35,397 bases of DNA from the NCBI RefSeq assembly GCF_049337375.1, contig NZ_JBMPIV010000015.1. One strand, 5' to 3'. The DNA comes from Nannocystis pusilla (lineage in GTDB: Bacteria; Myxococcota_A; Polyangia; Nannocystales; Nannocystaceae). This document shows positions 1,042-33,435 of this stretch, one piece after another (the first letter of the stretch is position 1; every line of letters starts with the position of its first letter). The notes below the pieces were generated by a model, which did not search any database, was not told the origin of the DNA, and was given only the letters and a program-made list of their open reading frames with translations. Position numbers and translations under genes: made by a program.

Positions 1042-1821
1042 CTAGCCGCTGCAGGGGCCGCCCTGGGCGACCCAGCCGTCCTGGCCGCAGACGTAGTACT
1101 GAAAATTCTCGCCGCAGACCTGATGGCCGCATTCGGTCGCATACACGGTGTTGCCGAGGTAGTCCTTGCCGCCGGGGCAGTCGCAGCCGTCGTCGCCGCC
1201 GCAGACGCCGCCCTTGGCGACCCAGCCGTTCGGCTCGCAGGCGTAATACTGGAAGTCTTCGCCGCAGATCTGCTGGTCGCAGGCGGTCGCGTGCACGGGG
1301 TTGCCGAGGTTGTCAGTGCCGTCGGGGCAGTCGCATTCGTCGCCGTCGTCGTCGCCGTCGCCGCAGACGCCGCCCTGGGAGACCCAGCCGTTTTGCCCGC
1401 AGACGTAGTAATGGAAGTCCTCGCCGCAGACCTGGTGGCCGCATTCGGTGGCGTTCACGGTGTTGCCGAGGTAGTCCTTGCCGCCGGGACAATGGCAGCC
1501 GTCGTCGCCGCCGCAGACGCCGCCCTGGGCGACCCAGCCGTCCTGGCCGCAGACGTAGTACTGGAAGTCTTCGCCGCAGACCTGATAGCCGCAGACGTCG
1601 GTGTCCACGGGGTTGCCGAGGTGATCGGTGCCGCCGTCGCACGGACACCCGCCGCCGTCGCGCAGGTCGATCGCGGACGCGTCGGCGCGCGCGGCTGGCT
1701 GGTCGTCGCAGGCCAGCGGCGCGAGCACGGAGGCGCTCAGCAGCAGGGCGGCGCCGAGGCGCGAGGCGGAGAGGAGACGGCGCGAGAGCGAGGCGTGAGG
1801 GCGCGTGAAGGTGATGGACAT
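1042..1821 (-). CDS. secreted lipoprotein made of four tandem ~50-aa cysteine-rich repeats (CxCPGGKDYLGNTVxATECGHQVCGEDFQYYVCGQDGWVAQGGVCGGDDG)
   Basis: Signal peptide plus lipobox (LAPLAC); AAGGAA Shine-Dalgarno 7 nt upstream of ATG at 1819-1821; four near-identical repeats visible in the translation. Confidence 0.8.
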   Translation of the reverse strand: MSITFTRPHASLSRRLLSASRLGAALLLSASVLAPLACDDQPAARADASAIDLRDGGGCPCDGGTDHLGNPVDTDVCGYQVCGEDFQYYVCGQDGWVAQGGVCGGDDGCHCPGGKDYLGNTVNATECGHQVCGEDFHYYVCGQNGWVSQGGVCGDGDDDGDECDCPDGTDNLGNPVHATACDQQICGEDFQYYACEPNGWVAKGGVCGGDDGCDCPGGKDYLGNTVYATECGHQVCGENFQYYVCGQDGWVAQGGPCSG

Positions 1822-4179: not shown

Positions 4180-4255
4180 GAGGTGCGGCGGGAGGGCCGG
4201 CGGCGCGAGCGGGAGCGGCGGATCGGCGGCAGGGGTCGTGCGGGCAGGCGGCGGA

Positions 4256-4450
4256 TATGTCCCTTGGGACATGTCTTCAGGGGCGTTCGACGAGGGCGTG
4301 GGCGGAGCCGGGTCGGATGTCCCTGGGGACAGGTTGTCGGGGGCGGCCGGATCGGCTGTCCCCGAGGATGTGCGGTCGAGAGGGGACGGCGGAACAGGTG
4401 AGGGTGTCCTCTCGGGCATGTCATCCGAGACATGTCCCGAGGGTCCGACC
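4256..4450. repeat. cluster of five copies of the palindromic repeat family (TGTCCCTTGGGACATGTC, TGTCCCTGGGGACAGGTTGTC, GCTGTCCCCGAGGATGTG, GGGTGTCCTCTCGGGCATGTCATCCGAGACATGTCCCGAGGGTCC) in the divergent PAP2/SUKH-gene intergenic region
   Basis: read directly from the sequence; a further half-copy TTTGGGGACAGGTG lies at 4605-4626. Confidence 0.8.
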
Positions 4451-6062: not shown

Positions 6063-6256
6063 GCGGCGGACCGGCCGCGAGGGCTCCTGCCCGAGCACGA
6101 ACGATGACTCCCTTCATTCGGGCCCCTCGTCTCGTGGCCGTTTCCACGGGTGCTCGGCCATGCGTTACCAGCGGCGATCCATCCTCGGCACAAGCCCTGG
6201 CAAAGGATGACGGGCGGCACGAGGAGGCGCGCCCACGGCGTCGTGCTGCGGCCGCT

Positions 6257-7483
6257 TCATCGAGGCGATGAGCGAGGGGGACCTGGCCGGTCCACGGTCG
6301 CCACCAGCGTCTCGTGCAGGAGCGCGAGCGCCACGGCGATGCCCACCAAGAACCACGGAATTGCGCCGAGCCCGAGCCGTTGGCCGAGCACACCTGCGAG
6401 GCTGGGCATGACGGCGATGCCCGCGGTCGCGGCGCTCACCTGAAAGCCCACGGCGTGGGCCGCGTGCGACCCCATGCGGCGCGGCGTCTCGGCCATCAGG
6501 ACCGGGTACATGGGGGCCAGGGCGAAGCCGAGGAGCGCGAGGCCGGCGAATGCCACCCCCTGCGGTAGCCCGGGGAGAGCGAACAAGGCCGCGCCGAGCA
6601 CGGCGAGCGCGGTGGCGAGGCGCACGAGGAGCACCGGGCCCACGCGTTCGACGACGAAGCCGAGGACGACGCGGCCGGCCAACAGGCTCGCCCAGTAGAG
6701 GCTGACCCGGGTACCGGCCTGAACTTCGTCGAGCCCCCGCGCCTCGGTGAGCACGGTGAAGGCCCATTGACCCGCGGACATCTCGAGGCCGGCGTACAGC
6801 AAGAAGAACCCGAGCTGCAGCCACATGCGAGGGCGGCGCAGCACGTGGGGCCCGGCGTCTGGCTCGGCGATCGCGGCCGAGGTCGCGGCGTCCGGGGCAC
6901 TGGGGGCGGCGCCTTCGTCCCAGCGCCGGCGGGTGAAGACGAAGGCGACCGCGAGCACGCCGAGCGCTCCGGCGAGGACCGCATATCCCGTGCGCCACCC
7001 GGCCTCGCGCGCGAGGACTGCCGTCATGAGGGCAGGCCCGAGCGCCGCGCCCAAGCTGTAGGCCGCATGAAGCCAGGTCATGTGGCGCGCGCCAAAGTTG
7101 TGCGCGACGTAGGCGTTGAGCGCGGCATCGATCGCGCCGGAGCCGAAGCCCCCGATGCACGCCGCGGCGAGGAAGACGCCGAGGTTCGGCGCCGCAGCGA
7201 ACCCCGCGACCGCCAGCGTGACGATCGCGGTGCTGCCTGCCAGGAGCGCGCCGAGCCCCACGCGACGCATGAGGCTGCCGGCCGCCAGCCCCGAGAGGAA
7301 GTACGAGACCGCCAGAGCGGCCAGCGGCGCGCCGAGTGCCGCCTGGGGCAGCGAGAAGGCGGCGCGCAGCGACGGCCAGGCCACTCCGAGCACCGCGTCG
7401 GGCAGCCCGAGGCTGATAAAGCCGAGGTAGGCGAGCACGAGGAGCGTGGTCAGGTGACGCGAGGAGGCGGTGGGCTCGGGCAT
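6257..7483 (-). CDS. MFS transporter
   Basis: 12-TM pattern; start at M25 of ORF 6257..7555 (MPEPTASSRHLTTLLVLAYLGF…). Confidence 0.8.
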   Translation of the reverse strand: MPEPTASSRHLTTLLVLAYLGFISLGLPDAVLGVAWPSLRAAFSLPQAALGAPLAALAVSYFLSGLAAGSLMRRVGLGALLAGSTAIVTLAVAGFAAAPNLGVFLAAACIGGFGSGAIDAALNAYVAHNFGARHMTWLHAAYSLGAALGPALMTAVLAREAGWRTGYAVLAGALGVLAVAFVFTRRRWDEGAAPSAPDAATSAAIAEPDAGPHVLRRPRMWLQLGFFLLYAGLEMSAGQWAFTVLTEARGLDEVQAGTRVSLYWASLLAGRVVLGFVVERVGPVLLVRLATALAVLGAALFALPGLPQGVAFAGLALLGFALAPMYPVLMAETPRRMGSHAAHAVGFQVSAATAGIAVMPSLAGVLGQRLGLGAIPWFLVGIAVALALLHETLVATVDRPGPPRSSPR

Positions 7484-16134: not shown

Positions 16135-16148
16135 GGCGCGGCAGGGCG

Positions 16149-16388
16149 GGAGGACATGTCCGAGAGGACCTGTCTCGTGCGTGCGGAGGTCCGTGGGGAC
16201 ATGTCCTCTCGGACACTCCCGAGGGGACATGGCGGAGCGTCCGCGCGGCGCGCCCGTGCCGGCGCCGCGGGGAGGCGGTCTTTCGGGACATGTCCTTGCA
16301 GACATTTCCGCTGAGCTGGCGTCGGAGCGGCGCTCTCGTGGCCAGTTTTGTGTGTGGTGGTATTTGGGGACATGTCCTATCGGACGTG
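16149..16388. repeat. four repeat-family copies in the convergent intergenic gap between the S41 peptidase and SDR genes
   Basis: GGGAGGACATGTCCGAGAGGACCTGTCTCG; GGGGACATGTCCTCTCGGACACTCCCGAGGGGACATGGCGG; CGGGACATGTCCTTGCAGACATTTC; TTTTGTGTGTGGTGGTATTTGGGGACATGTCCTATCGGACGTGG. Confidence 0.85.
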
Positions 16389-16423
16389 GCCGACGAGACA
16401 GCAGGTTGGCGTCGGAGCGGCGC

Positions 16424-18420: not shown

Positions 18421-20316
18421 CTAGGAGGCGGGGACGGGCTCGGCCCCGAGGTCGCGGGCGAGGTCGGCGAGCTCGCCGATCGGGACCTGCAGCGCGGGCA
18501 GACGGGTGATGTCGGCCCGCGCGGCCTGGGCGATCGACTCGCTGGCGCGCATGATGAGGCCGCCGTTGGCGTCGGCGACGACGGTGTAGCCGGCCTTGCG
18601 CAGGCGGGCGAGCCGGGCCTGGGCGGCGGGGGTGAGGTCGGTGGCGGTGATGCGCAGGGATGGCACGCGGCCGGGCCAGAGGGCGGCGAGGTAGGCGGTG
18701 ATCCGCGGCGGGTAGACGACGCCGCCGGCTGTCTTTTCGTTCAGGTGGACGTCGACCAGCGCGGGGTAGCCGTGCACGTCGCAGCGGACCGCCCCGTGCA
18801 AGTGGCTGGTCCACATCGCCTCGGGGCTGACGGGCGCGGGCCACAGGCGGTCGAACCACGCGGCGATGGCGTCGTAGCTGGGGAGGCGCTGGCCGCCGAG
18901 CGCGTCGCCCAGGCGCTGGACCTCGGCGCCGAACCGCTCGCCGCGCTCCTCCCGGCGCAGGCGCAGGAGGATGGCGAGGACGGCGATGGCGATGGCGGCG
19001 TACCACAGGCCGAACAGCAGCAGCCCGCCGCAGACGATGGCGGCGAACAGGAGGCCGAGGCCGCCGTCGCGGACCTGTTGCTGGCGCCGCTCGTCGGCGT
19101 GGCGCGCCAGGAGGGCGCGGCGAGCGACCGCGAGGGCGCTGGCGGGGATCCGGCCCTCCGGCTCGGGGCCGGCGAGGTCGGGGCGATCGGGGAGGAAGGA
19201 GCGGACGGCGGCGATCAGGTCCCGGGTCGCGGGCGAGGCGGGGCTGTCGGCGGGCTCGCGCACCGCGGCGACCACCAGCGGCGCCTCGGCCAGACCGCCG
19301 GGCGGGGCCGCCAGCCCCGCCGTGGCCGAGGGGGTGCTGAGGCTGGCGCCGGAGCGGTTGGAGAGGATCGCCAGGAGCGAGGAGTTCGACGGGCTCATCG
19401 CGGCGCCCGGGAGGGTGTCGCTGGCGGCCGTCCGCGCGGCCGGGTCGCGGGCGAGGCTGGCCCCGAGGCCAGGTGCCTGCTCGCGCGGGGCGGGCAAGGG
19501 GCCGGACAGCGCGGCGGGGTCGAAGCCGGGAGCGACCGCGGTGCGGAGGCCCGGCGCGGCGGGTGAGCTGTCTGCAGGGACAGGTGATGAGGAGGCGCGG
19601 AGGGCGGCGAGGTGGCTGTCCGAAGGGACAGATGATGGCCGGCTGTCCGTGGGGACAGGCGGGGATCGCGTGGCCGCGGGGTCGAGGTCATGGCTGTCCG
19701 TGGGGACAGGCGGCCGGTGGCTGTCCGCAAGGGCAGGTTGATGGAGGCTGTCCGCAAGGACAGGCGCATCGACGGGCAGGGACAGCTGGGCCGGCTCCGG
19801 CGCGGCGTCGTGCCCGTGGGCGGCCAGGCCCGCGGCCGGCTCGGCCGACAGGGGGCCGGGGCGGGCGTCGGCCCAGCGGCCGGGGCGGGGGCCCTGCAGG
19901 GTGTCGCCGGGCTCGGGGGCGGCGAGCGGAGCGTTGCTGTCTCTCAGGACAGGTCGCAGGGGAGCCGGGACGGCGGGCGGCGGGGCCGGGCCGATCGAGA
20001 GCAGGGTGGTCGGCGGGACGGGCGCGGCGAGCAGCCTGGCCGAGGGCCCGGGCTGGTGGCGCGCGTGGAGCCGCGGGCTCGGCGGCGGGGCCTTGGCGTC
20101 GGGTTCGGGGCTGACCTTCGGGACAGGTGCGCTGTGGACCAGGTCGCTGACGGCCTGCTGGATCGCCCGCTCGTAGAGGGCCAGAGCGTCGGCGACGGCC
20201 GGCGGCAAGCCGTGGGGCTGCCGGCAGGCGGGGCAGTCGGCGGCGTCGCGGAGGTCGGCGAGCGAGAGCGCGTGCTGGCAATGCGGGCAGCGCAACGCGA
20301 GCGTCGGAGAGAGCAC
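18421..20316 (-). CDS. membrane-anchored protein: N-terminal zinc ribbon (CPHCQ…CPAC), long Pro-rich linker containing a six-unit repeat array, one TM helix, C-terminal globular domain of unknown function; 5' end uncertain (GTG 20316 or TTG 20295; the ORF opens at 20754)
   Basis: C-terminal ~220 aa non-repetitive and protein-like (…FDRLWPAPVSPEAMWTSHLHGAVRCDVHGYPALVDVHLNEK…); 4-nt gap to the downstream gene suggests an operon. Confidence 0.5.
   Translation of the reverse strand: MLSPTLALRCPHCQHALSLADLRDAADCPACRQPHGLPPAVADALALYERAIQQAVSDLVHSAPVPKVSPEPDAKAPPPSPRLHARHQPGPSARLLAAPVPPTTLLSIGPAPPPAVPAPLRPVLRDSNAPLAAPEPGDTLQGPRPGRWADARPGPLSAEPAAGLAAHGHDAAPEPAQLSLPVDAPVLADSLHQPALADSHRPPVPTDSHDLDPAATRSPPVPTDSRPSSVPSDSHLAALRASSSPVPADSSPAAPGLRTAVAPGFDPAALSGPLPAPREQAPGLGASLARDPAARTAASDTLPGAAMSPSNSSLLAILSNRSGASLSTPSATAGLAAPPGGLAEAPLVVAAVREPADSPASPATRDLIAAVRSFLPDRPDLAGPEPEGRIPASALAVARRALLARHADERRQQQVRDGGLGLLFAAIVCGGLLLFGLWYAAIAIAVLAILLRLRREERGERFGAEVQRLGDALGGQRLPSYDAIAAWFDRLWPAPVSPEAMWTSHLHGAVRCDVHGYPALVDVHLNEKTAGGVVYPPRITAYLAALWPGRVPSLRITATDLTPAAQARLARLRKAGYTVVADANGGLIMRASESIAQAARADITRLPALQVPIGELADLARDLGAEPVPAS
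19568..19770. repeat. array of six GCTGTCCGNNGGGACAGG(T/C)G units with irregular 27-51 bp spacing, encoding PVPTDS(H/R)-type peptide repeats in the linker of the 18421..20316 protein; more copies at 19935-19955 and 20108-20140
   Basis: read directly from the sequence. Confidence 0.8.
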
Positions 20317-20692: not shown

Positions 20693-23404
20693 GTGCCCGA
20701 TCTGCCCGTCTCGCCTCCTTCGCCCCGCGGCCTCGATCTCCCCGGCGCCGCCACTCAATTCGCGCCGCTCGTCGACGAGCGGCTGGCCAACGGCGCCCGC
20801 CTGCTGATCCTGCCCGGGCGACCGGCCGGGGCCGGGCCGGCGGCGGTGCAGCTGTGGGTCGGCTCGGGCACGGCGGCCGAGCGAGAGGACGAGCACGGCT
20901 GCGCCCACCTGCTCGAGCACATGCTCTTCAAGCCATGTGTTTTGGGACATGGCCCGAAGAGCAACCGCGCGCGCCTGGCTGCGGCCGGGGTGCGGCGGGC
21001 CGAGGAGGCGTTCGACCTGGCGGGCGCGATCGAGGCGCTCGGCGGCGACATCAACGCGTTCACCAGCCACGACGAGACGGTGGTCCACGTGACTACGCCG
21101 GCGGCCCGCGCGGCCGAGGCGGCGGCGCTGGTGGCCACCGCGACGCTGTTCCCGACGCTCGACCCGGCCACGCTGGGGCAGGAGCGCGAGGTGGTGATCG
21201 AGGAGATCAAGCAGTACGACGACGATCCGGGCCAGCGGGTGACGCAGGCGGCGCTGTCGCGGGTGTACGGGGCGCACGCGTACGCGCGGCCGGTGCTCGG
21301 CCTGGCGGAGGAGGTCGCGGGGCACTCGGCGGCGCGGCTGCGCGGGTATCACCGGCGGGCCTACGCCGGCGAGCGGCTGACTCTGGTGGCGGTCGGCGCG
21401 GTCGACGTGGCGGCGCTGCGCAAGGTGGCGCGGGCGATCGTCGGCGCGCTGCCGGCGGCCAAGAGGCGCGCGACGGCGGGCGAGCCGGCGGCGAAGCCGG
21501 GGGTGACGCTGCGCCGCGCCGAGGTCCAGGAGACCTACGCGCTGCTGGCCTGGCCGGCCCCGGCGGCGGGCGCGGCCGAGGCGGCGGCGATCGACGCGGC
21601 GGCGGTGGTGCTCGGCAACGGCGAGTCGTCGCGCCTGGTCGCCGAGACACGTCGCAAAGAACAGGTCGTCTCGGACATCCAGGCCCACTGCGACACGCTG
21701 CGCCACGGCGGGACGGTGATGGTGTCGGCGCGCACGACCGCGGGCCAGACGGCGGCGGCGGTGGCGGCGGTGCTGGCCCAGGTGCGGCGGCTGGCGGACG
21801 CGCCGGTGTCGGCCGAGGAGCTGGCGCGGGCCAAGGCGATCCTCGAGAGCGACCTGGTGTACCGGCGCGAGACGGTGCAGGGCCAGGCCCACGCGCTCGG
21901 GGCCTGCGCGACGCTGTTCGGCGACCTGGCCCGCGAGCGCGAGTACTACGCGGCCCTGGCGGCGCTGACGCCCGAGGCGGTCCGCTCGGCCTGCGCGCGC
22001 TGGCTCGACCCGGCGCGCGCGAGCGTCAGCCTCGAGCTGCCGCGCGCGGAGGTGGATGTCCAAACGGCCAGGTCGATCAAGGCCGCGGTGGCCGAGGCGC
22101 TGAAGCCGGCGCCGACGCCGGGGCGCGCCGGGGCGACGCCGCGCCGGGCCAGCGACGGGATCGAGACGGTGACCCTGGCGTGCGGGCTGCGCCTGCTGGC
22201 GCGGGTCGAGCCGGCGGTGCCGGTGGCGGCGGGCTGGCTGATCTGGCCGGGCGGGCTGCGGCGCGAGCCGGCGGCGCTGGCCGGCGCGAACTCGGTGATC
22301 GCGGCGCTGCTGACCCGCGGCAACGCCCGCACCGGCGGCGAGGCGCTGAGCCGGGCGATCGACGGGATGGCCGCGGGGCTCGACGGCTTCGCCGGCCGCA
22401 ACAGCCTGGGCCTGCACTTCGAGTGCCTGAGCCGCCACTTCCCGGCGGTGCTCGGGCACGCGCTCGACTGCGCGACGACACCGAAGTTCGCGGCCGACGA
22501 GCTCGAGGAGGAGCGGCGGGTGGCGCTGCAAGATCTGGCGGCCGAGGTCGACGACCCGGGCGCGGTGGCCAGCCGCGGGCTCAACGCGCTGCTGTACGGC
22601 GAGCACCCGTTCAGCCGCCCGGGCCGCGGCACGCCGGCCGGCCTGCGGGCGCTGACGCCGGCCAAGCTGCGGGGGCTGTGGCGCCGCGACTACCCGATCG
22701 GGCAGGCGGTGCTGGCCCTGGCCGGCGACATCGACGTCGCGGCGGCGGCGGCTCAGGTCGAGGCGGCGCTGCGCGAGGCTGGCCTCGGGGACAGGCTGTC
22801 TGAAGGGCCAGGTGCGCCGAAGAAGTTCGCGGCGCCGACCGGGCCGCGCGAGCGCGAGATCTTCCAGGACCGCGAGCAGGCCCACATCGCCCTCGGCTGG
22901 CCGGGCATCGCCGTGGGCGACGAGCGCGAGCCGACCCTCGACGTGCTCAGCGCGGTGCTCGGCGGCCAGACCGGGCGGCTGTTCACGGCGCTGCGCGAGG
23001 TCCAGGGGCTGGTGTACGAGGTGTCGATGAGCAGCGTCGAGGGCCTCGACGCCGGCCACGTGGCGATCCACGCGTCGACGAGCCAGGACAAGCTGCCGAA
23101 GGCGATGGCCGCGATCGCGGCGGAGGTCGAGCGCGCGGTGCGAGAGCCGCCGTCGGCGGCGGAGGTCGAGCGCGCCAAGGCGTGGCTGGTCGGCCAGTTC
23201 GAGCTCGGCCAGCAGCGCCGCAGCCGGATGGCGTCGCTGCTGGCGCTGTCCGAGGTCTACGGGCTGCCGCGCGCGCGCGCGTTCGCGTACCCGCAGCGGG
23301 TCGCGGCGGTGACCGCCGAGGGGGTGTGGGCGCTGGCGAGGACGCTGTTCCGCCCGCAACGCGCGGCCCGCTGCGTGGTCCGGGCGCGCCGGCGCAAGGG
23401 CTGA
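20693..23404 (+). CDS. two-unit M16-family (pitrilysin-like) zinc metallopeptidase carrying an 18-aa in-frame insertion right after the HxxEH motif
   Basis: HLLEHMLFK…DINAFTSHDETVVHV plus second M16 unit; GTG 20693 start is an inference (the ORF opens at 20573). Confidence 0.75.
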   Translation: MPDLPVSPPSPRGLDLPGAATQFAPLVDERLANGARLLILPGRPAGAGPAAVQLWVGSGTAAEREDEHGCAHLLEHMLFKPCVLGHGPKSNRARLAAAGVRRAEEAFDLAGAIEALGGDINAFTSHDETVVHVTTPAARAAEAAALVATATLFPTLDPATLGQEREVVIEEIKQYDDDPGQRVTQAALSRVYGAHAYARPVLGLAEEVAGHSAARLRGYHRRAYAGERLTLVAVGAVDVAALRKVARAIVGALPAAKRRATAGEPAAKPGVTLRRAEVQETYALLAWPAPAAGAAEAAAIDAAAVVLGNGESSRLVAETRRKEQVVSDIQAHCDTLRHGGTVMVSARTTAGQTAAAVAAVLAQVRRLADAPVSAEELARAKAILESDLVYRRETVQGQAHALGACATLFGDLAREREYYAALAALTPEAVRSACARWLDPARASVSLELPRAEVDVQTARSIKAAVAEALKPAPTPGRAGATPRRASDGIETVTLACGLRLLARVEPAVPVAAGWLIWPGGLRREPAALAGANSVIAALLTRGNARTGGEALSRAIDGMAAGLDGFAGRNSLGLHFECLSRHFPAVLGHALDCATTPKFAADELEEERRVALQDLAAEVDDPGAVASRGLNALLYGEHPFSRPGRGTPAGLRALTPAKLRGLWRRDYPIGQAVLALAGDIDVAAAAAQVEAALREAGLGDRLSEGPGAPKKFAAPTGPREREIFQDREQAHIALGWPGIAVGDEREPTLDVLSAVLGGQTGRLFTALREVQGLVYEVSMSSVEGLDAGHVAIHASTSQDKLPKAMAAIAAEVERAVREPPSAAEVERAKAWLVGQFELGQQRRSRMASLLALSEVYGLPRARAFAYPQRVAAVTAEGVWALARTLFRPQRAARCVVRARRRKG
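20924..20977 (+). repeat. 54-bp element-derived in-frame insertion (CCATGTGTTTTGGGACATGGCCCGAAGAGC…) encoding PCVLGHGPKSNRARLAAA inside the M16 peptidase
   Basis: compared with the canonical HxxEHMxFKGT spacing recalled from MPP-beta and pitrilysin; atypical codons tgt gtt ttg gga cat. Confidence 0.6.
22787..22816. repeat. repeat-family copy (GGGGACAGGCTGTCTGAAGGGCCAGGTGCG) in-frame in the M16 inter-unit linker
   Basis: read directly from the sequence. Confidence 0.55.
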
Positions 23405-23429
23405 GCCCCTGTTCTCCGCGACAGGTCGA

Positions 23430-23459
23430 GAGTGACATGTCCCCGGGGACATGTCACTC
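23430..23459. repeat. perfect 30-bp palindrome GAGTGACATGTCCCC|GGGGACATGTCACTC built from the repeat core, filling the convergent gap between the M16 gene and the next gene
   Basis: reverse complement equals itself, checked base by base. Confidence 0.9.
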
Positions 23460-23468
23460 GGGCCATGG

Positions 23469-23897
23469 TCAATCGTCGTCGGGCTCGACGTCCGGGTGGG
23501 CGACCCGGCGCGCGCCGGCGACCGTGAGGTACTCGTCGCGGTCGCGCAGGCGGTCGACTCGCAGGTCGCCGCCGACGTAGAACTCGGTCTCGAAGATGGC
23601 GAGCTCGCGGGCGACGAGGTCGCCGAGGACGACCGCGCACATCAGGCGGTCGGACACGCAGAGGTCGCCGCGCACCGTGAGGCTGCCGGTGACGACGATG
23701 GTGCCGATGTCGTCGGGGGCGGCGGCGAGCTGCAGCTGCGACCAGTGCTCGTCGCCGAGCCAGGCGTCGCCCTCGACGGTGAGGTCGCCCTCGTAAACGG
23801 CGCAGGCGCAGCCGTAGCGGCCGCCCGAGGCGAGGCGGGCGAAGGTGCCGTGGCGGCGGTCGAGCTCGGCTTCGCTGATGACGACGGGCTTCAGCAC
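23469..23897 (-). CDS. hypothetical protein with a beta-helix/bactofilin-like periodic pattern (GDLTVEGDAWLGD…TGSLTVRGDLCVSD…VGGDLRVD)
   Basis: GTG start at 23897; the ORF's upstream extension to 23957 is encoded by a repeat copy at 23950-23991 (GAGGACATGTTGGATAGAACATGGCGAAAGGGTCATGTTCGA). Confidence 0.45.
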   Translation of the reverse strand: MLKPVVISEAELDRRHGTFARLASGGRYGCACAVYEGDLTVEGDAWLGDEHWSQLQLAAAPDDIGTIVVTGSLTVRGDLCVSDRLMCAVVLGDLVARELAIFETEFYVGGDLRVDRLRDRDEYLTVAGARRVAHPDVEPDDD

Positions 23898-24163
23898 GCG
23901 GCGAGTCTGGCACGCCGCGGGGGCGCTGTCACGGCGCCAGCGTGGCCAAGAGGACATGTTGGATAGAACATGGCGAAAGGGTCATGTTCGATGCGACGCG
24001 CGAGGTCGGCGTGGACCGTGGAGGGTGCCGGCCCTGCTGGCAGGCTGCGCCGAGCGCTGCCTGCTCGTCGAGGGCGCGGGTCGATGGGACGAGGGGGGCA
24101 TGGCTCCTCCGCGACCGGCGACGGAGTCCGGCGTGGACGTCTGATCTTTAAAATAAGCTGTCC

Positions 24164-24379
24164 TCAGGGCCAGTCGTCGAGGTCGAGGCCGCGGGCCAGC
24201 TCGGCGTCGCCGGCCAGCAGATCGCGCAGGGTCGCCTCGCGCACGCCGAGGGCGCGGGCGCCGGCGCTCACGCTGCACTGGGCCGCCAGGACCGCCCGGA
24301 CCTCGCGGCGAAAGGCGAGCGGGTCGGCGCGGCGGAGGGCCAGGAGCAACGGCTCGCGGGGCTCGGCGGGCAAGGTCAC
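24164..24379 (-). CDS. possible small Fis-type HTH protein (…VSAGARALGVREATLRDLLAG…); its last eight codons and stop are supplied by a repeat copy (TTTAAAATAAGCTGTCCTCAGGGCCAG, 24148-24176)
   Basis: tail of ORF 24164..25237; GTG start; weak. Confidence 0.3.
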   Translation of the reverse strand: MTLPAEPREPLLLALRRADPLAFRREVRAVLAAQCSVSAGARALGVREATLRDLLAGDAELARGLDLDDWP

Positions 24380-24523
24380 GCGCGAGGACTGTAGCGCTTG
24401 TCGCGGCCGGGGCGGAGCGCGGCGAAGCAGAGGCCGTGGCGCTCGTCGCAGCGGGGACGCGCGGGCCGAAGCAGAGGCTGGGGCGCTTGTCGCGGCTGGG
24501 GCAGACGTGCTGAAGTGGCGTCG

Positions 24524-25147
24524 ATGTCGGGGCGACGGATCGGCGCGTGGATGTTGCTGGGGCTGCTGCTGGGCGGGTGCGACCCGGCGAAGGAGAGGGA
24601 GCTGGCGGCGGTGCGGGCGGAGCTGGCGGCGACGTCGGCGCTGGTCAAGGAGCAGGGCCAGCGGATCGAGTCGCTGACGAGCGAGCTGGCGAAGGCGCGG
24701 GCCGATCGGGTCCTGTGCGAGGTCGATCGGTCTCCGCCCGGTGGGGCCGGCGACGCTCCGCCAGCGCCGGCGACGGACGCTCCGCCAGCAGGAGAGGCGA
24801 CGCCGACGCTGTCGCCGACGTGCGCCGAGGGGACCTGCGTGGTGAAGCGCAGCGAGCTCGAGGCGTTCATGGCGGCGCCCGAGGCGATGGCCCGGCTGGC
24901 GCGCGTGCTCCCGGCGATGGAGGACGGCAAGGCGGTCGGCTTCAAGCTGTTCGCGATCCGCTCCGAGTCGCCGCTGGCGCTGCTGGGTTTTAAAAATGGG
25001 GACCTGGTGCGCACCGTGGCCGGGCGAGCGGTGGGTGACATGGAGGCGTTGCTGCAAGCGTACTCGCAGCTGCGCACGCTCGACCGCTGGACGGTCACGG
25101 GTACGCGCAAGAGCGGGCCGTTCGAGGTGACGATCGCGGTGCAATGA
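24524..25147 (+). CDS. lipoprotein with coiled-coil segment and C-terminal PDZ/GspC-like domain
   Basis: MSGRRIGAWMLLGLLLGGCD lipobox; C-terminus …FKLFAIRSESPLALLGFKNGDLVRTVAGRAV… is PDZ-like. Confidence 0.65.
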   Translation: MSGRRIGAWMLLGLLLGGCDPAKERELAAVRAELAATSALVKEQGQRIESLTSELAKARADRVLCEVDRSPPGGAGDAPPAPATDAPPAGEATPTLSPTCAEGTCVVKRSELEAFMAAPEAMARLARVLPAMEDGKAVGFKLFAIRSESPLALLGFKNGDLVRTVAGRAVGDMEALLQAYSQLRTLDRWTVTGTRKSGPFEVTIAVQ

Positions 25148-25228
25148 GAAGACTGTCCGAAGGGACAGGTGGTCGTGGCGAGCCGGTCGGTCGAGGCGAG
25201 AAGACTGTCTGAAGGGACAGGTGGCGGC
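25148..25228. repeat. two direct copies (54-bp period) of GAGAAGACTGTC(C/T)GAAGGGACAGGTGG filling the convergent gap between the PDZ lipoprotein and XRE genes
   Basis: read directly from the sequence. Confidence 0.85.
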
Positions 25229-25233
25229 GGCCG

Positions 25234-25440
25234 TCACTTCGCGTCGGGGTCGAACTGAAACACGGCCTCGAGCGGGACCGCGAAGGCGAGGGCGATCCGG
25301 AAGGCCACCTCGAGCGAGGGGGCGTACTTGCCGCCCTCGATCGCGTTGACGGTCTGGCGGCTGACGCCGATCCGCTCGGCCAGCTCCTGCTGCGTCATCT
25401 CGCCGCGCTCGAAGCGGAGCTGGCGGATCCGGTTCTTCAC
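25234..25440 (-). CDS. XRE-family helix-turn-helix transcriptional regulator (68 aa)
   Basis: VKNRIRQLRFERGEMTQQELAERIGVSRQTVNAIEGGKYAPSLEVAFRIALAF; GTG start. Confidence 0.7.
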   Translation of the reverse strand: MKNRIRQLRFERGEMTQQELAERIGVSRQTVNAIEGGKYAPSLEVAFRIALAFAVPLEAVFQFDPDAK

Positions 25441-25883: not shown

Positions 25884-25910
25884 GCGCGCCTCAGGGGTGG
25901 CAGCTTTGCT

Positions 25911-25963
25911 TGACACGATGTCAAAGATACGCGACACGGGAGCCGTGTCAAGCTAGCTTGACA
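25911..25963. promoter_or_regulatory. three overlapping palindromes carrying TTGACA hexamers: TTGACAcgaTGTCAA, GACACGGgagCCGTGTC, GTCAAGCTAGCTTGAC. Probable promoter/operator of the membrane-protein/XRE operon
   Basis: read directly from the sequence; lies immediately upstream of the minus-strand operon start. Confidence 0.55.
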
Positions 25964-26210
25964 TGAGTGGCGAGAACGTGGCGGAACGCCTGGCCTGCAG
26001 GCGCTGGCGTCGATCAGCAGCGATGCGCGTGGACGCGCGGGCGCCGGAGCGTTGTGGCGGGGACCACACGGATCTGCTCCAGGTTCTGGGTGGGCGAAGT
26101 CGCGCAAGGTCGATCCCCGCAGGCGATCAAGCCGTTCGCGTCGGGACGAGTCGCGCCACGAAGGCGCTCGCGCGCCCGGGTGAGGCTGGGCGTCGGCCTC
26201 GCGTGTCTGC

Positions 26211-26332
26211 GAGGACATGCGCGCGAGGACATGCGCGCGAGGACATGCGCGCCAGGGCATGCGCGAGGACATGCGCGCGAGGACATGCGCGCGAGGACAT
26301 GCGCGCGAGGACATGTCCGAGAGGACATGCCC
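26211..26332. repeat. microsatellite-like tandem array, about nine units of GAGGACATGCGCGC (14 bp), ending in GAGGACATGTCCGAGAGGACATGCCC. An expansion of the repeat-family half-site
   Basis: read directly from the sequence; lies just 3' of the stop at 26347. Confidence 0.9.
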
Positions 26333-26346
26333 TCGGAGCCAGCGGC

Positions 26347-28128
26347 TCAGGCGGCGGAGGCGACGCCGAGGGTGCGGGCGAGGGCGCGGGCGACCGCGAG
26401 GGGGCGGCCCTTGAACACGCGGACGTACGGGATGGCGCTGGCCCGGGCGGCGCGGGCGAGGATCCCGTCGATGTTGTGGGCCTGGAAGCCGGTGGCGATG
26501 AGCACGTAGTCGTAGCTGTGGCGCGAGATGCTCTCGCACTGGGCCTGGACCTTGCGGGCGTTGCCGTCGCACCAGGTGATGTCGAGGCCGAGCGACTCCT
26601 CGAGCTTCGACTTGAGGTCGGGGTCCTCGCGGTTGCTGACGAACAGGACCCGCTTGCCCTCGACCTTGGGCCGGACCTGGGCGACCAGGTGCGCGCCCGG
26701 ATCGTCGACGTCGTCGGTCTCTTCCTCGAGGTCGCTGTCGCTGTCGGACGGCAGCACGCCGAGCTCGCCGCGCTTGATCACGTCCTGCAGGCCGGTGAGG
26801 CGGCGACGCATGCGGCGGTCCTCGAACAGGTCGGGGCGCAGGGCGTCGATGCGCGGGCGGATCGGCTGGACCAGCGACGCGACCTCGGGCGTGTTGTGGG
26901 CGTCGAAGGCCCGGCCGAGGAAGGCGAGCAGGGCCTCGTCGTCGAAGCTGTCGGCGGCGACCAGGGCGTCGCGTTCGGCTCGCACCGCCGCTTGCTGCTG
27001 GCGGACCTGATCGGCCGAGGGCCCGGTCTTGGCGCGCTCGGGCGGCGGGATGAACTCGGGGTCGAGCCAGCGGCGCAGCTGCGGCAGGCGCTCGCCGAGG
27101 CGCCCCGCGAGCCAGCGCAGGCGGCCCATGACGGCGCCCCAGGTCTCGGGGTCCTCGGCGGCGATGAAGCGACGGATGTCGCGCAGCGCCTGGGCGTGCT
27201 TGACGAGCGCGTCGAGCTGCTCGTTCGGCAGCTCCTCCGGCGGCGTGGTCAGGTGGCGCGGCGGCGGGTCGGTGACGTTGCCGGCGATGGCCTCGACGGC
27301 GCGCTGGGCCTCGCGCAGGAGGGCGCGCGGCTGGCCCGGCGGGGCCTTGCGCGGGCGGTCGGCCCAGCCGTAGTCGTCGACCGGGACCTCGCTGGTCATC
27401 GCGCGCTCGCGATGGTTCTGCACGAACTCGTGCGCCTCGGCCCAGGTCTTCGGCGCGTGCAGCGTCTTCAGCCCGAGCTCGGTGACCACGCACGCGGGCA
27501 CCGCGTTCATCTGCAGCGCCTGCACCGAGCCGGGCCACAAGGTCTTGCTGAGGTTCGTCAGCTCGTGGGCGATCCGCCGCACCAGCACGGTGATCTTGTG
27601 CTCGCCCTGGAACTGCTCGTCGAAGCTGCGCGCGCGGGAGATCCACGCCAGCATGTAGACCTTCTGATAGCGCGGCGACATCAGCGCGAAGTCGGGCCGC
27701 ATGTCCTGGATGTCCTTGAGGATCTCTTCCAGGGTCTCACGCGCCTCGGCGACCGCAGCAGCGGGATAAGTCGGTAGCTGGATCCGGCCGACGATCGGGC
27801 TGCGCGGTAGCTCGGGCTGCTCGGGCGCGGCGGGCGGGGCGGTGGGGATAACTTCGGGGGATACTGCGGCGCTGGGTGGCGCCGCCTGCGGACGGGCTGG
27901 CTCCTGGAGGCCGTCGCGGAAGCGATCGAAGAGTTGACGCGCGGCCGCCGACGGAAACATCTGCGTCAGCGCATCTTCGAGGGCGCTGTCACGATCGGGT
28001 CCGCGGCCGAGCCACCGCTCCGTGTCGCGCCAGATCAGCACCTCGGTCCACTGATGGGTATACATCGCGTGGCGGTAGCCGCTGTCCGCGAGAAACTTGG
28101 GTAGCCAGCGCGCGCCGTCGTCGTGCAT
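26347..28128 (-). CDS. hypothetical protein (593 aa); acidic linker and conserved-looking C-terminal domain
   Basis: long non-repetitive ORF with typical codon usage; lies 180 bp downstream of FabG on the same strand. Confidence 0.55.
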   Translation of the reverse strand: MHDDGARWLPKFLADSGYRHAMYTHQWTEVLIWRDTERWLGRGPDRDSALEDALTQMFPSAAARQLFDRFRDGLQEPARPQAAPPSAAVSPEVIPTAPPAAPEQPELPRSPIVGRIQLPTYPAAAVAEARETLEEILKDIQDMRPDFALMSPRYQKVYMLAWISRARSFDEQFQGEHKITVLVRRIAHELTNLSKTLWPGSVQALQMNAVPACVVTELGLKTLHAPKTWAEAHEFVQNHRERAMTSEVPVDDYGWADRPRKAPPGQPRALLREAQRAVEAIAGNVTDPPPRHLTTPPEELPNEQLDALVKHAQALRDIRRFIAAEDPETWGAVMGRLRWLAGRLGERLPQLRRWLDPEFIPPPERAKTGPSADQVRQQQAAVRAERDALVAADSFDDEALLAFLGRAFDAHNTPEVASLVQPIRPRIDALRPDLFEDRRMRRRLTGLQDVIKRGELGVLPSDSDSDLEEETDDVDDPGAHLVAQVRPKVEGKRVLFVSNREDPDLKSKLEESLGLDITWCDGNARKVQAQCESISRHSYDYVLIATGFQAHNIDGILARAARASAIPYVRVFKGRPLAVARALARTLGVASAA

Positions 28129-30204: not shown

Positions 30205-32255
30205 AGTCGTTCGCCCCGCTCGTCCACACCGATCCCGCGGCGCTCGTCGCCGTGGGCGAGGCCGGCGCGCGCACGGCCGGCGAGCTCATGCGCGACGCGA
30301 GGGCCGTCGCGGCGCGGCTGCCGGCGCCGATGCCGGGGAGCGAGGTGCTGGTGGTGTGCGGCGACCGCTACCACCTGGCGGTGACGACCCTGGCGGCGTG
30401 GCTGCGCGGCCACGCGGTCGCGCTGCCGCCCAACGCCCAGCCGGCGGCCGTGCGCGAGCTGGCCGGGCGGCCGTCGGTGGTCGCGCTGCTGCACGACTCC
30501 GACCTGGCCGACGCGCAGGACGTCCGCGAGTGGCTGGAAGGACATGTTTCAGGGGACATGGCCGATCCGACATGGCCCGAAGCGCTGGCGCCCGATCGCC
30601 GGCTGGCGGTCGTGTACACCTCGGGCAGCACCGGCGATCACCAGCCGTGCGCCAAGACGGCCGCGCAGCTGCTCGGCGAGGCGCAGGCGCTGGCGGCCAC
30701 GTTCGCCCTGCGGGCCGGCGAGGTGGCGCTGGCGACGGTGCCGCCGTACCACCTCTACGGGCTGCTGTTCGGGATCCTGGCGCCGCTGGCTGCGGGGGCG
30801 GCGTTCGCCCGCGAGACGCCGCTGCACGCCGAGACGGTGGCCCGGGCGGCGCGGCAGGTGGAGGCGACGGTGCTGGTCAGCACGCCGGCGCACCTGCGCG
30901 GGCTGACGGTGCTGACGCGCGGCGACCTGCCGCCGCTGTCGCGGGTGTTCTCGTCGGGCGCGCCGCTGCCGCGGGCCACCGCCGACGAGCTGCTGACCAA
31001 GCTGGGCCTGCAGGTGACCGAGGTGTACGGCTCGTCGGAGACCGGCGGGATCGGCTGGCGGCGGCACGAGGATGTTTTAAAAGACATGTCCCCGGAGCCA
31101 GCCTGGACGCCGCTGCCGGGAGTGACGGTCGAGGTGGCGGCCGAGGGGCGGCTGCTGCTGCGCTCGCCGTTCTTGGCCCCGGACGCGCCGGTGCCGTACC
31201 CGTGCGAGGATCGCGTCGAGGTCGACGCGCGCGGCGGGTTCCACCTGCGCGGGCGGCTCGACGGGGTGGTGAAGATCGCCGGCAAGCGGGTGGCGGTGGC
31301 CGAGGTCGAGCAGCGCCTGCTGGCGCTGGCGGCGGTGGCCGACGCCGCGGTGGTGGCGGTCGAGTCGCCGGGCGCGCGCGGGCACGAGCTGGTGGCCGCC
31401 GTGGTGGCGCGCGAGGCCGGGCGCGACGCCGCCGAGCTGGTGGCCGAGCTGCGGCGGGCGCTGCTGCCGTGGTTCGACCCGGTGGTGGTGCCGCGGCGGA
31501 TCAAGGTGGTGCCGGCGCTGCCGCGCGAGCCGAGCGGCAAGCTGACGCGGCGCAAGCTGCACGCGCTGCTCGGGCTCGCGGGCGAGGAGGAGAGTGCGTC
31601 GGGTGGCGCGAAGGACATGTCTGTGAGGACAGATGCCGACGCAGCGAGCGCGGGTCCGAGGCTCGGTGGCGCGAGGGACATGTCCGCGGGGACAGAGGCC
31701 GCACCAGAGCGCGGTGGCGCGAGGGACATGTCCGCGGGGACAGAGGCCGCACCGGAGCGAGGTGGCGCGAGGGACATGTCCGCGGGGACAGATGCCGATC
31801 CGGAGCGCGGTGGCGCGAGGGACATGTCCGCGGGGACAGAGGCCCATGGGGCGTCGTGGGGTGTCTCGCGAGACATGTCCGCGGGGACAGGTGGCGCGTC
31901 GGCGTTCGCGCTGGGCGGCCACGCGCGGCGCGACGAGGGCGGGGCGGCGGTGCACGAGGTCGAGGTGGGGGTGCCGGTCGACCTTGCGTTCTTCTGCGGG
32001 CACTTCGACGCGCTGCCGGTGCTGCCGGGGGTGGCGCAGCTGACCGCGCTGGTGGTGCCGCAAGTGGCGGCGCTGCGGCCGGAGCTGGGGCCGCTGAGGC
32101 GGGCGGCGCGGCTGAAGTTCACCCGGCCGATCGCGCCGGGCGACGCGCTGGTGCTGCGGCTCGAGGTCCGCGGGACTCAGGTCCGCTTCTCGTTGGCGCG
32201 GGCCGGCGAGGTGGTCACGGCGGGGGCGCTCGAGTACGAGGCGCGCGGAGGCTGA
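30201..32255 (+). CDS. AMP-dependent synthetase/ligase fused through a 5.5 x 16-aa repeat linker to a FabA/FabZ-like hotdog dehydratase domain
   Basis: YTSGSTG and GSSETGG AMP-binding motifs; FFCGHFDALPVLPGVAQL matches the hotdog dehydratase active-site motif; the true ATG at 30201 overlaps the upstream stop. Confidence 0.8.
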   Translation: MKSFAPLVHTDPAALVAVGEAGARTAGELMRDARAVAARLPAPMPGSEVLVVCGDRYHLAVTTLAAWLRGHAVALPPNAQPAAVRELAGRPSVVALLHDSDLADAQDVREWLEGHVSGDMADPTWPEALAPDRRLAVVYTSGSTGDHQPCAKTAAQLLGEAQALAATFALRAGEVALATVPPYHLYGLLFGILAPLAAGAAFARETPLHAETVARAARQVEATVLVSTPAHLRGLTVLTRGDLPPLSRVFSSGAPLPRATADELLTKLGLQVTEVYGSSETGGIGWRRHEDVLKDMSPEPAWTPLPGVTVEVAAEGRLLLRSPFLAPDAPVPYPCEDRVEVDARGGFHLRGRLDGVVKIAGKRVAVAEVEQRLLALAAVADAAVVAVESPGARGHELVAAVVAREAGRDAAELVAELRRALLPWFDPVVVPRRIKVVPALPREPSGKLTRRKLHALLGLAGEEESASGGAKDMSVRTDADAASAGPRLGGARDMSAGTEAAPERGGARDMSAGTEAAPERGGARDMSAGTDADPERGGARDMSAGTEAHGASWGVSRDMSAGTGGASAFALGGHARRDEGGAAVHEVEVGVPVDLAFFCGHFDALPVLPGVAQLTALVVPQVAALRPELGPLRRAARLKFTRPIAPGDALVLRLEVRGTQVRFSLARAGEVVTAGALEYEARGG
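30537..30584. repeat. repeat-family copy (GAAGGACATGTTTCAGGGGACATGGCCGATCCGACATGGCCCGAAGCG) in-frame in the ligase, encoding EGHVSGDMADPTWPEA just before the YTSGSTG motif; a second copy at 31071-31099 encodes DVLKDMSPEP
   Basis: atypical codons (gtt tca, aca, gaa, tta aaa). Confidence 0.7.
31603..31905. repeat. tandem array of about 5.5 units of 48 bp, each GGTGGCGCGAGGGACATGTCCGCGGGGACAGAGGCCGCACC(A/G)GAGCG(C/A), encoding (ERGGARDMSAGTEAAP)n between the ligase and dehydratase domains
   Basis: read directly from the sequence; not CRISPR-like because the units have no unique spacers. Confidence 0.9.
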
Positions 32256-32269
32256 GGCGGTGCGTATGG

Positions 32270-32403
32270 CCGAAGGGGCAGGTCGTTGCCAGATGTCCGG
32301 GAGGACAGGTCGTCCGCCGACGGTCGGCGGGCGGGGTGCGCCCCGCGGCGGGAGGCGGGCATGAGCGCGGACGGAGGCCAGGATGTGTCCCGAGGGACAG
32401 GTG
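32270..32403. repeat. repeat copies in the ligase/GT2 intergenic region and in the first 15 codons of GT2 (CCGAAGGGGCAGGTCGTTGCCAGATGTCCGGGAGGACAGGTCGTCC; GGATGTGTCCCGAGGGACAGGTG)
   Basis: read directly from the sequence. Confidence 0.75.
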
Positions 32404-33186: not shown

Positions 33187-33252
33187 GAGAGGACAGGTTC
33201 GATCGGCCATGGCTCATCAGGCAGGTGCGGGGGGACATGTCCCGGAGGACAA
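33187..33252. repeat. repeat copy (GAGAGGACAGGTTCGATCGGCCATGGCTCATCAGGCAGGTGCGGGGGGACATGTCCCGGAGGACAACC) between the GT2 and acyltransferase genes
   Basis: read directly from the sequence. Confidence 0.75.
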
Positions 33253-33263
33253 CCGGGCCGGGG

Positions 33264-33435
33264 CCGCGGCGGGCGAGCGCGGGGCGGGCGTGCCGGCGAC
33301 CGCCGCCGGGCAGGGGAGCGAGCGCGAGGCGGGCGGCGCCGCGGCGGGCGAGCGCGGGGCGGGCGTGCCGGCGACCACCGCGGGGCAGGGGAGCGAGCGC
33401 GAGGCGGGCGGCGCCGCGGCGGTCGAGGGCGACCG
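33264..33435. repeat. 75-bp tandem duplication (2.3 units) encoding (AAAGERGAGVPATAAGQGSEREAGG)n upstream of, or inside a 5' extension of, the acyltransferase gene
   Basis: read directly from the sequence. Confidence 0.85.

Follow-up and report, generated by a model that had tools for sequence, protein, structure and literature searches.

The window considered here, a stretch of 35,397 nucleotides from Nannocystis pusilla (contig NZ_JBMPIV010000015.1), carries copies of a short palindromic repeat both in the gaps between its genes and inside two of them. One copy lies in the convergent gap of 64 nt between the plus-strand gene of an M16 peptidase (20759..23404, recognized by a Pfam match; stop codon 23402-23404) and a minus-strand gene of 162 amino acids (aa), whose stop codon is at 23469-23471. 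As an earlier reading of the bare sequence (the original prediction) had described, this gap holds a perfect 30-nt palindrome, GAGTGACATGTCCCCGGGGACATGTCACTC, at 23430-23459; its arms are 15 nt long, it begins 25 nt past the M16 stop codon, and it ends 9 nt ahead of the opposing one. It is the longest perfect palindrome of the window, to be compared with a maximum arm of 7-11 nt in 199 of 200 first-order Markov simulations and of 16 nt in the remaining run. Most of the gap outside the palindrome is taken up by a degenerate hairpin (23409-23424).

For comparison, syntenic loci were available from N. pusilla Na p29 (L001, about 98% nucleotide identity), N. pusilla CP185339 (L005), N. exedens DSM 71 (L003) and N. 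punicea FL3 (L006). The orthologues of the degenerate hairpin are intact or nearly so, with TGTCC-ttcg-GGGCA in L005 and CTGCCC-ttcg-GGACAG in L001, and the 30-nt palindrome itself has an orthologous copy in CP185339 with two differences. The junction is variable between strains: the window and CP185339 have the palindrome and lack a Cys-rich gene of about 840 bp, which is present as an extra gene in Na p29, N. exedens and N. punicea, where the palindrome is absent. In Na p29 and N. exedens the insert is a minus-strand gene for 195-196 aa (L001 2164-3015, L003 3049-3851), while the insert of N. punicea is larger and annotated differently (L006 2740-3655). This pattern conflicts with overall identity, because the window is closest to Na p29, and the presence and absence of the Cys-rich segment suggest recombination or repeated loss.

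The gap between the gene of a PDZ lipoprotein and the XRE gene, whose stop codon is at 25234-25236, holds two copies of the 27-nt unit GAGAAGACTGTCYGAAGGGACAGGTGG at 25146-25172 and 25198-25224, differing by one mismatch and following each other with a period of 52 nt. The direct pair had been announced from 25148 onward; both copies are real, and the first starts two positions earlier, such that it overlaps the final two bases of the TGA of the PDZ lipoprotein gene. On the minus strand this copy has the form of a terminator, CTGTCCCTTCGGACAG followed by TCTTCTCATT, and it is the single copy that a terminator scan of the window flagged (25153-25168, minus strand). A TCTTCTC tail on the minus strand is common to both copies, which makes them look like one-way terminators of the XRE operon, not like terminators for both directions. 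The gap contains two copies in the window and in L005, and four in Na p29, where a duplicate of the PDZ gene's 3' end forms part of the repeated unit, a sign of tandem duplication.

One family built on two pentamers

The palindrome and both units of the direct pair belong to one family, built on the pentamers GGACA and TGTCC. The full unit of 24 nt, GGACATGTCC-N4-GGACATGTCC, is a dimer of 10-nt palindromes and accounts for 34 of 250 copies; the minimal unit, or core, is TGTCC-N4-GGACA, and three-quarter and half forms are frequent. With at most one mismatch the core matches 38 times in the window against 1.12 expected (34-fold), and GGGACATGTCC matches 34 times against 0.46 expected from shuffles (74-fold). 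Chance palindromes are thereby ruled out, none of 100 shuffles reaching the observed core count. Within the window TGTCC adjoins a preceding GGACA at 0 nt in 10 cases, GGACA comes exactly 4 nt after TGTCC in 18, and GGACA recurs at a period of 14 nt 15 times; these arrangements explain the pentamer excess, isolated pentamers and isolated 10-mers not being enriched. Each of the 10 GGACATGTCC sites of the window is flanked by an N4-GGACA-like partner. In REPINs, two inverted REPs (see below) stand at a set distance, fold into a longer hairpin and are replicated together; higher-order inverted doublets of this sort, with a constant spacer, were not seen here, and the spacings within clusters are irregular.

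The stem sequence is conserved and the loop is free in sequence, its length always being 4 nt. Stems range from 5 to 13 bp, with 7 bp or more common in convergent gaps and mostly 5-6 bp in coding copies. The compensated stem variants TGTCT..AGACA (13) and TGCCC..GGGCA (11) are more numerous than uncompensated double changes at the same pairs, a comparison which suggests that base pairing matters.

Very short, lineage-specific words are known from other bacteria, such as HIP1 (GCGATCGC) of cyanobacteria, DUS of Neisseria and USS of Pasteurellaceae, which occur mostly as single oriented copies, and for which biased uptake, recombination or repair has been proposed; inverted DUS/USS pairs downstream of genes double as terminator hairpins. 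The Nannocystis repeat shares with them its shortness, its restriction to one lineage, its frequency of about one copy per 1-5 kb, its presence in coding as well as non-coding DNA, and a frame preference that goes with codon usage. It differs in that its halves alone are not enriched and the hairpin arrangement is the unit, so that it is not an iterated motif of that kind. By analogy, the arms could be DNA-level sites for an abundant, sequence-specific protein (nucleoid, segregation or gyrase-type) or for biased uptake, recombination or repair, the hairpin then being a by-product of dimer-site symmetry. It can be argued for such an origin that the arm sequence itself is conserved beyond mere complementarity while the loop is free, that the 0/4/14-nt phasing is strict and includes a 14-nt array of GGACATG alone, that coding copies occur in every frame as for HIP1 and USS/DUS, and that a preference for G.U pairs on the sense strand is absent (see below). 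A binding or uptake motif would, however, not predict an excess that resides essentially entirely in paired hairpin arrangements, nor the stop-proximal bias and the longer stems found in convergent gaps; the compensated double changes point to pairing, and we know of no candidate protein that binds the arms. Such an origin of the arms is therefore considered unlikely.

Placement, inheritance and taxonomic range

The placement of the repeat was examined in 87 Nannocystis loci of 8 kb from at least 8 genomes, amounting to about 620 kb after segments containing the scanned pattern had been dropped, whereby the counts are unbiased by locus discovery. Genes were called by the periodicity of G+C at third codon positions (GC3), and these calls reproduce the annotation of orthologous loci; stop codons are exact and start codons approximate, hence the lengths of convergent gaps are exact and those of divergent and co-directional gaps approximate. 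On this basis, exact cores occur at 2.10 per kb in convergent gaps, 0.40 in co-directional gaps, 0.20 in divergent gaps and 0.10 in coding sequence, a ratio of 21 : 4 : 2 : 1. At up to one mismatch the respective densities are 6.01, 1.57, 0.51 and 0.33 per kb, with at least one copy in 56%, 18%, 8% and 19% of the segments. The enrichment at convergent 3' ends claimed in the original prediction thus extends well beyond the window, while the view that the copies are a filler of convergent gaps alone was not sustained: copies are also present in co-directional and divergent gaps and in two genes, two of the five convergent gaps of the window have none, and about 40% of the cores, by count, lie inside coding sequence. 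The overall density of 0.165 exact and 0.54 near-exact cores per kb extrapolates to an estimated 2,000 exact and 6,000-6,400 near-exact copies per 12-Mb genome.

In convergent gaps the nearest stop codon is at a median of 18 nt from the copies, and in co-directional gaps the median distance is 58 nt to the upstream stop as compared with 164 nt to the downstream start. The mean stem extension amounts to +2.5 bp in convergent gaps (up to 13 bp) versus +0.5 bp in coding sequence, and the full double palindrome accounts for 16 of 56 copies in convergent gaps as against 1 of 103 in coding sequence.

The copies of the window are compiled in Table 1. The cluster that had been placed at 16149-16388, in the convergent gap of the S41 peptidase and SDR genes, was found there with at least five copies within 16135-16423. 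A second cluster (4253-4441) lies between a minus-strand coding signal that ends near 4215 and a plus-strand gene from about 4743, both recognized by GC3 periodicity only. The array at 26204-26330, just downstream of the stop codon of a 593-aa gene, differs in length from those of L001 and L005. Behind the AMP-ligase/dehydratase gene an additional decayed copy lies at about 32266-32283, and the single copy at 33232-33251 recurs at the corresponding site of four other genomes, its loop varying.

Table 1. Positions and forms of the repeat copies, clusters and arrays in the window
Feature	Position	Strand	Form and setting
Cluster of 4-5 copies	4253..4441		4253-4276, 4314-4335, 4405-4441; probable divergent gap
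Cluster of at least 5 copies	16152..16386		cores at 16157, 16188, 16202, 16291, 16373; S41 peptidase/SDR convergent gap
In-frame array, 6 cores, 27-nt period	19569..19762	-	PVPxDS repeats, conserved 631-aa hypothetical protein
Decayed copy	23409..23424		CTGTTC-tccg-CGACAG; directly 3' of M16 stop codon
Perfect palindrome	23430..23459		GTGACA-TGTCC-CCGG-GGACA-TGTCAC; 13-bp stem with self-complementary loop
Direct pair, copy 1	25146..25172		core TGTCC-gaag-GGACA at 25154-25167; T-rich tail on minus strand
Direct pair, copy 2	25198..25224		TGTCT-gaag-GGACA, one G.U-type change; 9 nt ahead of XRE stop codon
Array of about 9 units of 14 nt, then a full copy	26204..26330		units GCGAGGACATGCGC; full copy GGACATGTCC-gaga-GGACATGCCC; co-directional gap
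In-frame array, 6 cores, 48-nt period	31602..31889	+	encodes (GGARDMSAGTEAAPER)n
Two copies	32294..32399		cores at 32294 and 32386; co-directional gap after AMP-ligase/dehydratase gene
Single copy	33232..33251		GGGACATGTCC-cgga-GGACA; co-directional gap, glycosyltransferase gene to acyltransferase gene

Many copies are common to orthologous sites across species, with the majority of changes located in loops and flanks. Decay is seen in the first copy past the AMP-ligase stop codon, which N. exedens and N. punicea have in intact form and N. pusilla in a degenerate one. Between the window and Na p29, all breaks of the blastn alignment fall at element-bearing gaps or tandem arrays. One of these, at 33254-33431, is a 75-bp tandem repeat (2.4 copies, 94% matches) at the 5' end of the LpxL-type acyltransferase gene which is not obviously of the repeat family; as the alignment breaks there, its copy number differs between the strains.

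GGGACATGTCCNNNNGGACA was scanned over one genome per species for 185,579 species. Of the 120 matches listed, 87 belong to Nannocystis species, a Nannocystaceae metagenome-assembled genome (MAG) and two Myxococcota MAGs, and the other 33 are isolated and scattered across many unrelated taxa; as far as such a scan of genomes can tell, the family is specific to the genus Nannocystis. The source of the window agrees with this range, its 631-aa protein being 100% identical to a Nannocystis pusilla protein and its AMP-ligase/dehydratase protein 88-89% identical to N. pusilla proteins. No Rfam family was found at gathering thresholds anywhere in the window, and a literature search gave no description of palindromic, REP (repetitive extragenic palindromic) or RAYT repeats in Nannocystis or other myxobacteria, hence the family is apparently undescribed so far. 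The only literature match for the sequence GGACATGTCC, as a p53 response element, was set aside as a coincidence.

Several further features of the window stand beside the repeat. Just upstream of the minus-strand two-gene operon for a 157-aa protein and the XRE regulator, the region 25905-25965 contains a perfect 18-nt palindrome, TGTCAAGCTAGCTTGACA (25946-25963), and close to it TTGACAcgaTGTCAA, and the two overlap the sole sigma-70-like promoter match in 18 kb. The XRE regulator may have its operator here, a candidate site without relation to the repeat family. The divergent gap ahead of the PDZ lipoprotein gene contains a 44-bp tandem repeat (24394-24501, 2.4 copies), and a minus-strand gene (1042..1776), which probably encodes a repetitive protein, has tandem repeats of 150 and 312 bp (1045-1636). 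The segment 29285-35397, likewise found in L001-L006, is a conserved cluster comprising genes of an acyl carrier protein, a 216-aa protein, an AMP-ligase/ApeI-like dehydratase fusion, a family-2 glycosyltransferase and an LpxL-type acyltransferase, followed by aromatic ammonia-lyase, 4HBT thioesterase, LolA-like, MMPL and DUF3261 genes; its gene content suggests an aryl-polyene or coumarate-primed lipid pathway. In some Nannocystis assemblies, and not in others, the M16 peptidase and glycosyltransferase genes are each divided into two open reading frames in the public gene calls (L001 264-2069, L005 615-3327, L001 12020-12828). The GC skew is uniform and strongly positive over 1-35397 (G 39.6%, C 32.9%), and its cumulative rise is monotonic despite genes on both strands.

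Copies inside genes

Both coding arrays of the window lie in conserved proteins with intact flanking domains. The (GGARDMSAGTEAAPER)n repeat links two domains of one protein, AMP-binding_C and the ApeI-like dehydratase, and the number of its RDMS units varies from 0 to 6 in Nannocystis orthologues, none being present in homologues outside the genus. The copy number of the PVPxDS array likewise differs between Nannocystis species. In N. pusilla strain P0127 (genome of 12.69 Mb), the array corresponding to window positions 19400-19900 is read in a different frame, as SPRT/LSPRT/LSxRT instead of PVPxDS, and the protein regains its conserved C-terminal half past the frame-changed region; the array therefore tolerates frame shifts in and out.

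The sample at large contains 104 coding copies, which are distributed over the three frames (66, 30 and 8) and both strands and are translated as V(P/L)xD, (M/L)SxGT or CPxG(Q/H). The ranking of the frames would follow their fit to the GC3-rich codon usage, and rare codons (GGA CAT GTC...) betray the DNA-level origin of the coding copies. Since copies occur in three frames, on both strands and with rare codons, and since one array is read in two frames, the repeat is a DNA-level element and not a protein motif. The converse explanation, according to which the copies are chance palindromes or protein-level repeats with a secondary likeness in their DNA, accords with the regular peptide repeats that the coding arrays do encode. 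It is contradicted by the motif being present also in non-coding gaps, in three frames and on both strands, and by shuffles that never reach the counts; protein-level repeats are thus ruled out as well, and the explanation as a whole retains hardly any probability. The short coding copies are probably just tolerated.

Kinship to known repeats and a possible role at 3' ends

The hairpin potential attributed to these gaps was supported by folding free energies. The 64-nt M16 gap folds with -32.6 kcal/mol on the plus strand (z -2.8) and -31.5 kcal/mol on the minus strand (z -2.6), the first half of the S41/SDR gap with -92.6 (z -4.3) and -76.9 kcal/mol (z -3.7), respectively; folding is weaker for the PDZ/XRE gap and for the S41/SDR gap in its second half (z -1.7 to -3.1 against shuffles). 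A role of the long intergenic copies as mRNA 3'-end stem-loops, be it as barrier, pause or termination signal, is plausible.

Like intrinsic terminators, the copies form GC-containing stem-loops close behind stop codons, at distances from a few nt to a few tens, and a minority of about 10-16% of the intergenic ones has a T-rich tail: at least 4 T in the 9-nt tail are found for 16% of convergent and 12% of sense-side co-directional copies, the background being 3.6%. U-less 'I-shaped' hairpins have been proposed as terminators in high-GC bacteria. One may ask whether the copies are simply the intrinsic terminators of the organism, selected at each 3' end, with no spreading repeat family behind them. 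This would account for the position right past stop codons, for the T-rich tails at 25146-25224 facing the minus-strand XRE operon, and for the distribution of T-rich tails in co-directional gaps (7 of 58 on the sense side versus 1 of 58). Unlike intrinsic terminators, however, the repeat has an arm sequence common to thousands of sites, and independent selection would not give the same 10-nt arm at all of them; more than 100 coding copies in about 600 kb are not expected either, copies are found in divergent gaps too, and a U-tract is mostly lacking. Terminators without a repeat family are accordingly rated as very improbable.

A closer kinship is that to the REP and BIME elements of enterobacteria and pseudomonads. 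REPs are mainly located between convergent and unidirectional open reading frames, downstream of genes, with some intragenic, and comprise GTAG/CGTC-tagged families (Di Nocera et al. 2013, PMC3733652). By definition the basal stem of a REP is fully paired over 7-20 nt, the loop has 2-5 nt, and GTAG/GTGG (or CGTC) stands 0-2 nt 5' of the stem (PMC6006769); REPIN-RAYT systems have been described as well (PMC3116915, PMC3337134). The Nannocystis repeat shares with REP/BIME and REPIN-RAYT elements the hairpin of 20-40 nt with conserved stems and short variable loops (here a loop of 4 nt and stems of 5-13 bp), the hundreds to thousands of copies (here by extrapolation from the 620 kb), the dispersal, the restriction to a genus or species, the frequent clustering, and the mostly extragenic location downstream of convergent or unidirectional open reading frames with some copies intragenic. 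It departs from them in being untagged, fully symmetric and built from pentamers in strict 0/4/14-nt phase, in the 40% share of coding cores, and in loops far more heterogeneous than those of young REPIN populations. At 294 stem flanks of intergenic copies, GTAG and GTGG were found once each and CGTC 8 times. The assignment to REP/BIME-type elements made in the original prediction thus stands as regards hairpin form and 3'-end enrichment, and the absence of the GTAG/CGTC tag, together with the negative RAYT search in 810 kb (see below), leaves membership in the REP/BIME-RAYT class not established.

Could the copies nevertheless be canonical REP/REPIN elements, mobilized by a single-copy RAYT (TnpA_REP, HUH/Y1) encoded elsewhere in the Nannocystis genome? 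A hairpin this short, its stems conserved around a 4-nt loop that varies, the high copy number within one genus and the placement downstream of genes, as in the REP description (PMC3733652), would all be in line with this. The missing guide tag and the full symmetry of the elements speak against it, as does the orientation of asymmetric forms relative to GC skew (57 versus 54), which shows no replication-strand bias, unlike lagging-strand-template targeting. The RAYT homologue that the original prediction had proposed to look for was not found: E. coli RayT as a tblastn query against 810 kb from Nannocystis, a sample of less than 1% of the genomes and therefore weak evidence, gave nothing significant (best E 0.09). 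The sole match in that DNA, at 27268-27477 in the 593-aa gene on the minus strand and in its orthologues (25-26% identity over 72 residues, E 0.09-1), was dismissed; the 593-aa protein itself has no confident Pfam domain. All in all, a RAYT-mobilized REP is regarded as improbable.

The Rickettsia palindromic elements (RPE), of which PMC1166351 and PMC10969869 make mention, provide a second point of reference. They are selfish palindromic DNA of 100-150 bp present in frame in genes as single insertions. As with RPE, the Nannocystis palindrome is tolerated in open reading frames in a non-disruptive manner and translated as an extra peptide, occurs in intergenic DNA too, and is confined to one genus. 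Unlike RPE, it has a unit of 14-30 nt (five times shorter) with a sequence of its own, a myxobacterial host, variable tandem arrays, and translation in three frames.

Taken together, we consider it reasonably probable that the family is an untagged, REP-like palindromic repeat specific to Nannocystis, which forms stem-loops at 3' ends and expands locally in tandem. The copies accumulate where they are tolerated, above all within a few tens of nt downstream of stop codons, and are densest, with the longest stems, between convergent genes; in disordered protein linkers the short core alone survives, translated in any of three frames. Once in place they are passed on at orthologous positions, degenerate through point mutations and are multiplied locally by slippage or tandem duplication, giving rise to strain-variable arrays with periods of 14 and 52 nt outside genes and of 27 and 48 nt inside. 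Once transcribed, the longer intergenic copies may fold as stable stem-loops at the mRNA 3' end and act as barriers to 3'-exonucleases or as aids to pausing or termination; palindromic copies would serve both converging transcripts, and the minority with T-rich tails may be one-way intrinsic terminators. Dispersal to thousands of loci would need a trans-acting activity that recognizes the GGACA/TGTCC arms, for which a hairpin-specific single-strand DNA transposase or a bias in recombination or repair are candidates.

A number of observations weigh against this explanation, among them the approximate lengths of co-directional and divergent gaps mentioned above. Substitution at orthologous sites is 6.1% in stems, 10.9% in loops and 9.3% in flanks, a difference that is not significant (p about 0.15). 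The 250 copies show 62 classes of loop, a diversity not expected of a master element copied in recent time. Comparison of the window with the 98%-identical Na p29 yielded no clean insertion/empty-site pair, only changes in copy number and the one 840-bp gene indel, and for this reason mobility or transposition is not demonstrated. About 85-90% of the intergenic copies have no U-tract, one window copy alone passes the terminator scan, and U-less hairpins terminate poorly in the high-GC bacteria tested. Finally, one-sided stem changes in co-directional gaps show no preference for G.U pairs on the sense strand (21 versus 17), which argues against strong selection at the RNA level. In coding sequence, the G.U-type single changes number 21 sense and 35 antisense, and base composition is the simplest explanation for the excess of wobble on the G-rich strand (88 versus 42).

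A bolder variant, of low probability, holds that the repeat is not a REP of the RAYT type at all, and that its arms are recognized by a dedicated Nannocystis activity, such that besides marking 3' ends it seeds in-frame linker arrays which rapidly expand and contract and shift frame from strain to strain. If this were true, the element would be a genome-wide source of protein-length variation in a social bacterium with a genome of 12 Mb.

Nannocystis genomes are among the largest bacterial ones and are mined for natural products. A genus-specific element every 2-6 kb or so is a typing marker for them, and at the same time a hazard for assembly and annotation, gene callers splitting or fusing open reading frames where its arrays lie, as in the fragmented calls of the M16 and glycosyltransferase genes. 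The repeat probably also helps to determine where mRNAs end in an organism without mapped terminators. As a REP-like element without the RAYT guide tag, which is translated in many proteins and drives linker-length variation at the level of strains, it raises the questions by which route such elements disperse and whether they are exploited by their host.

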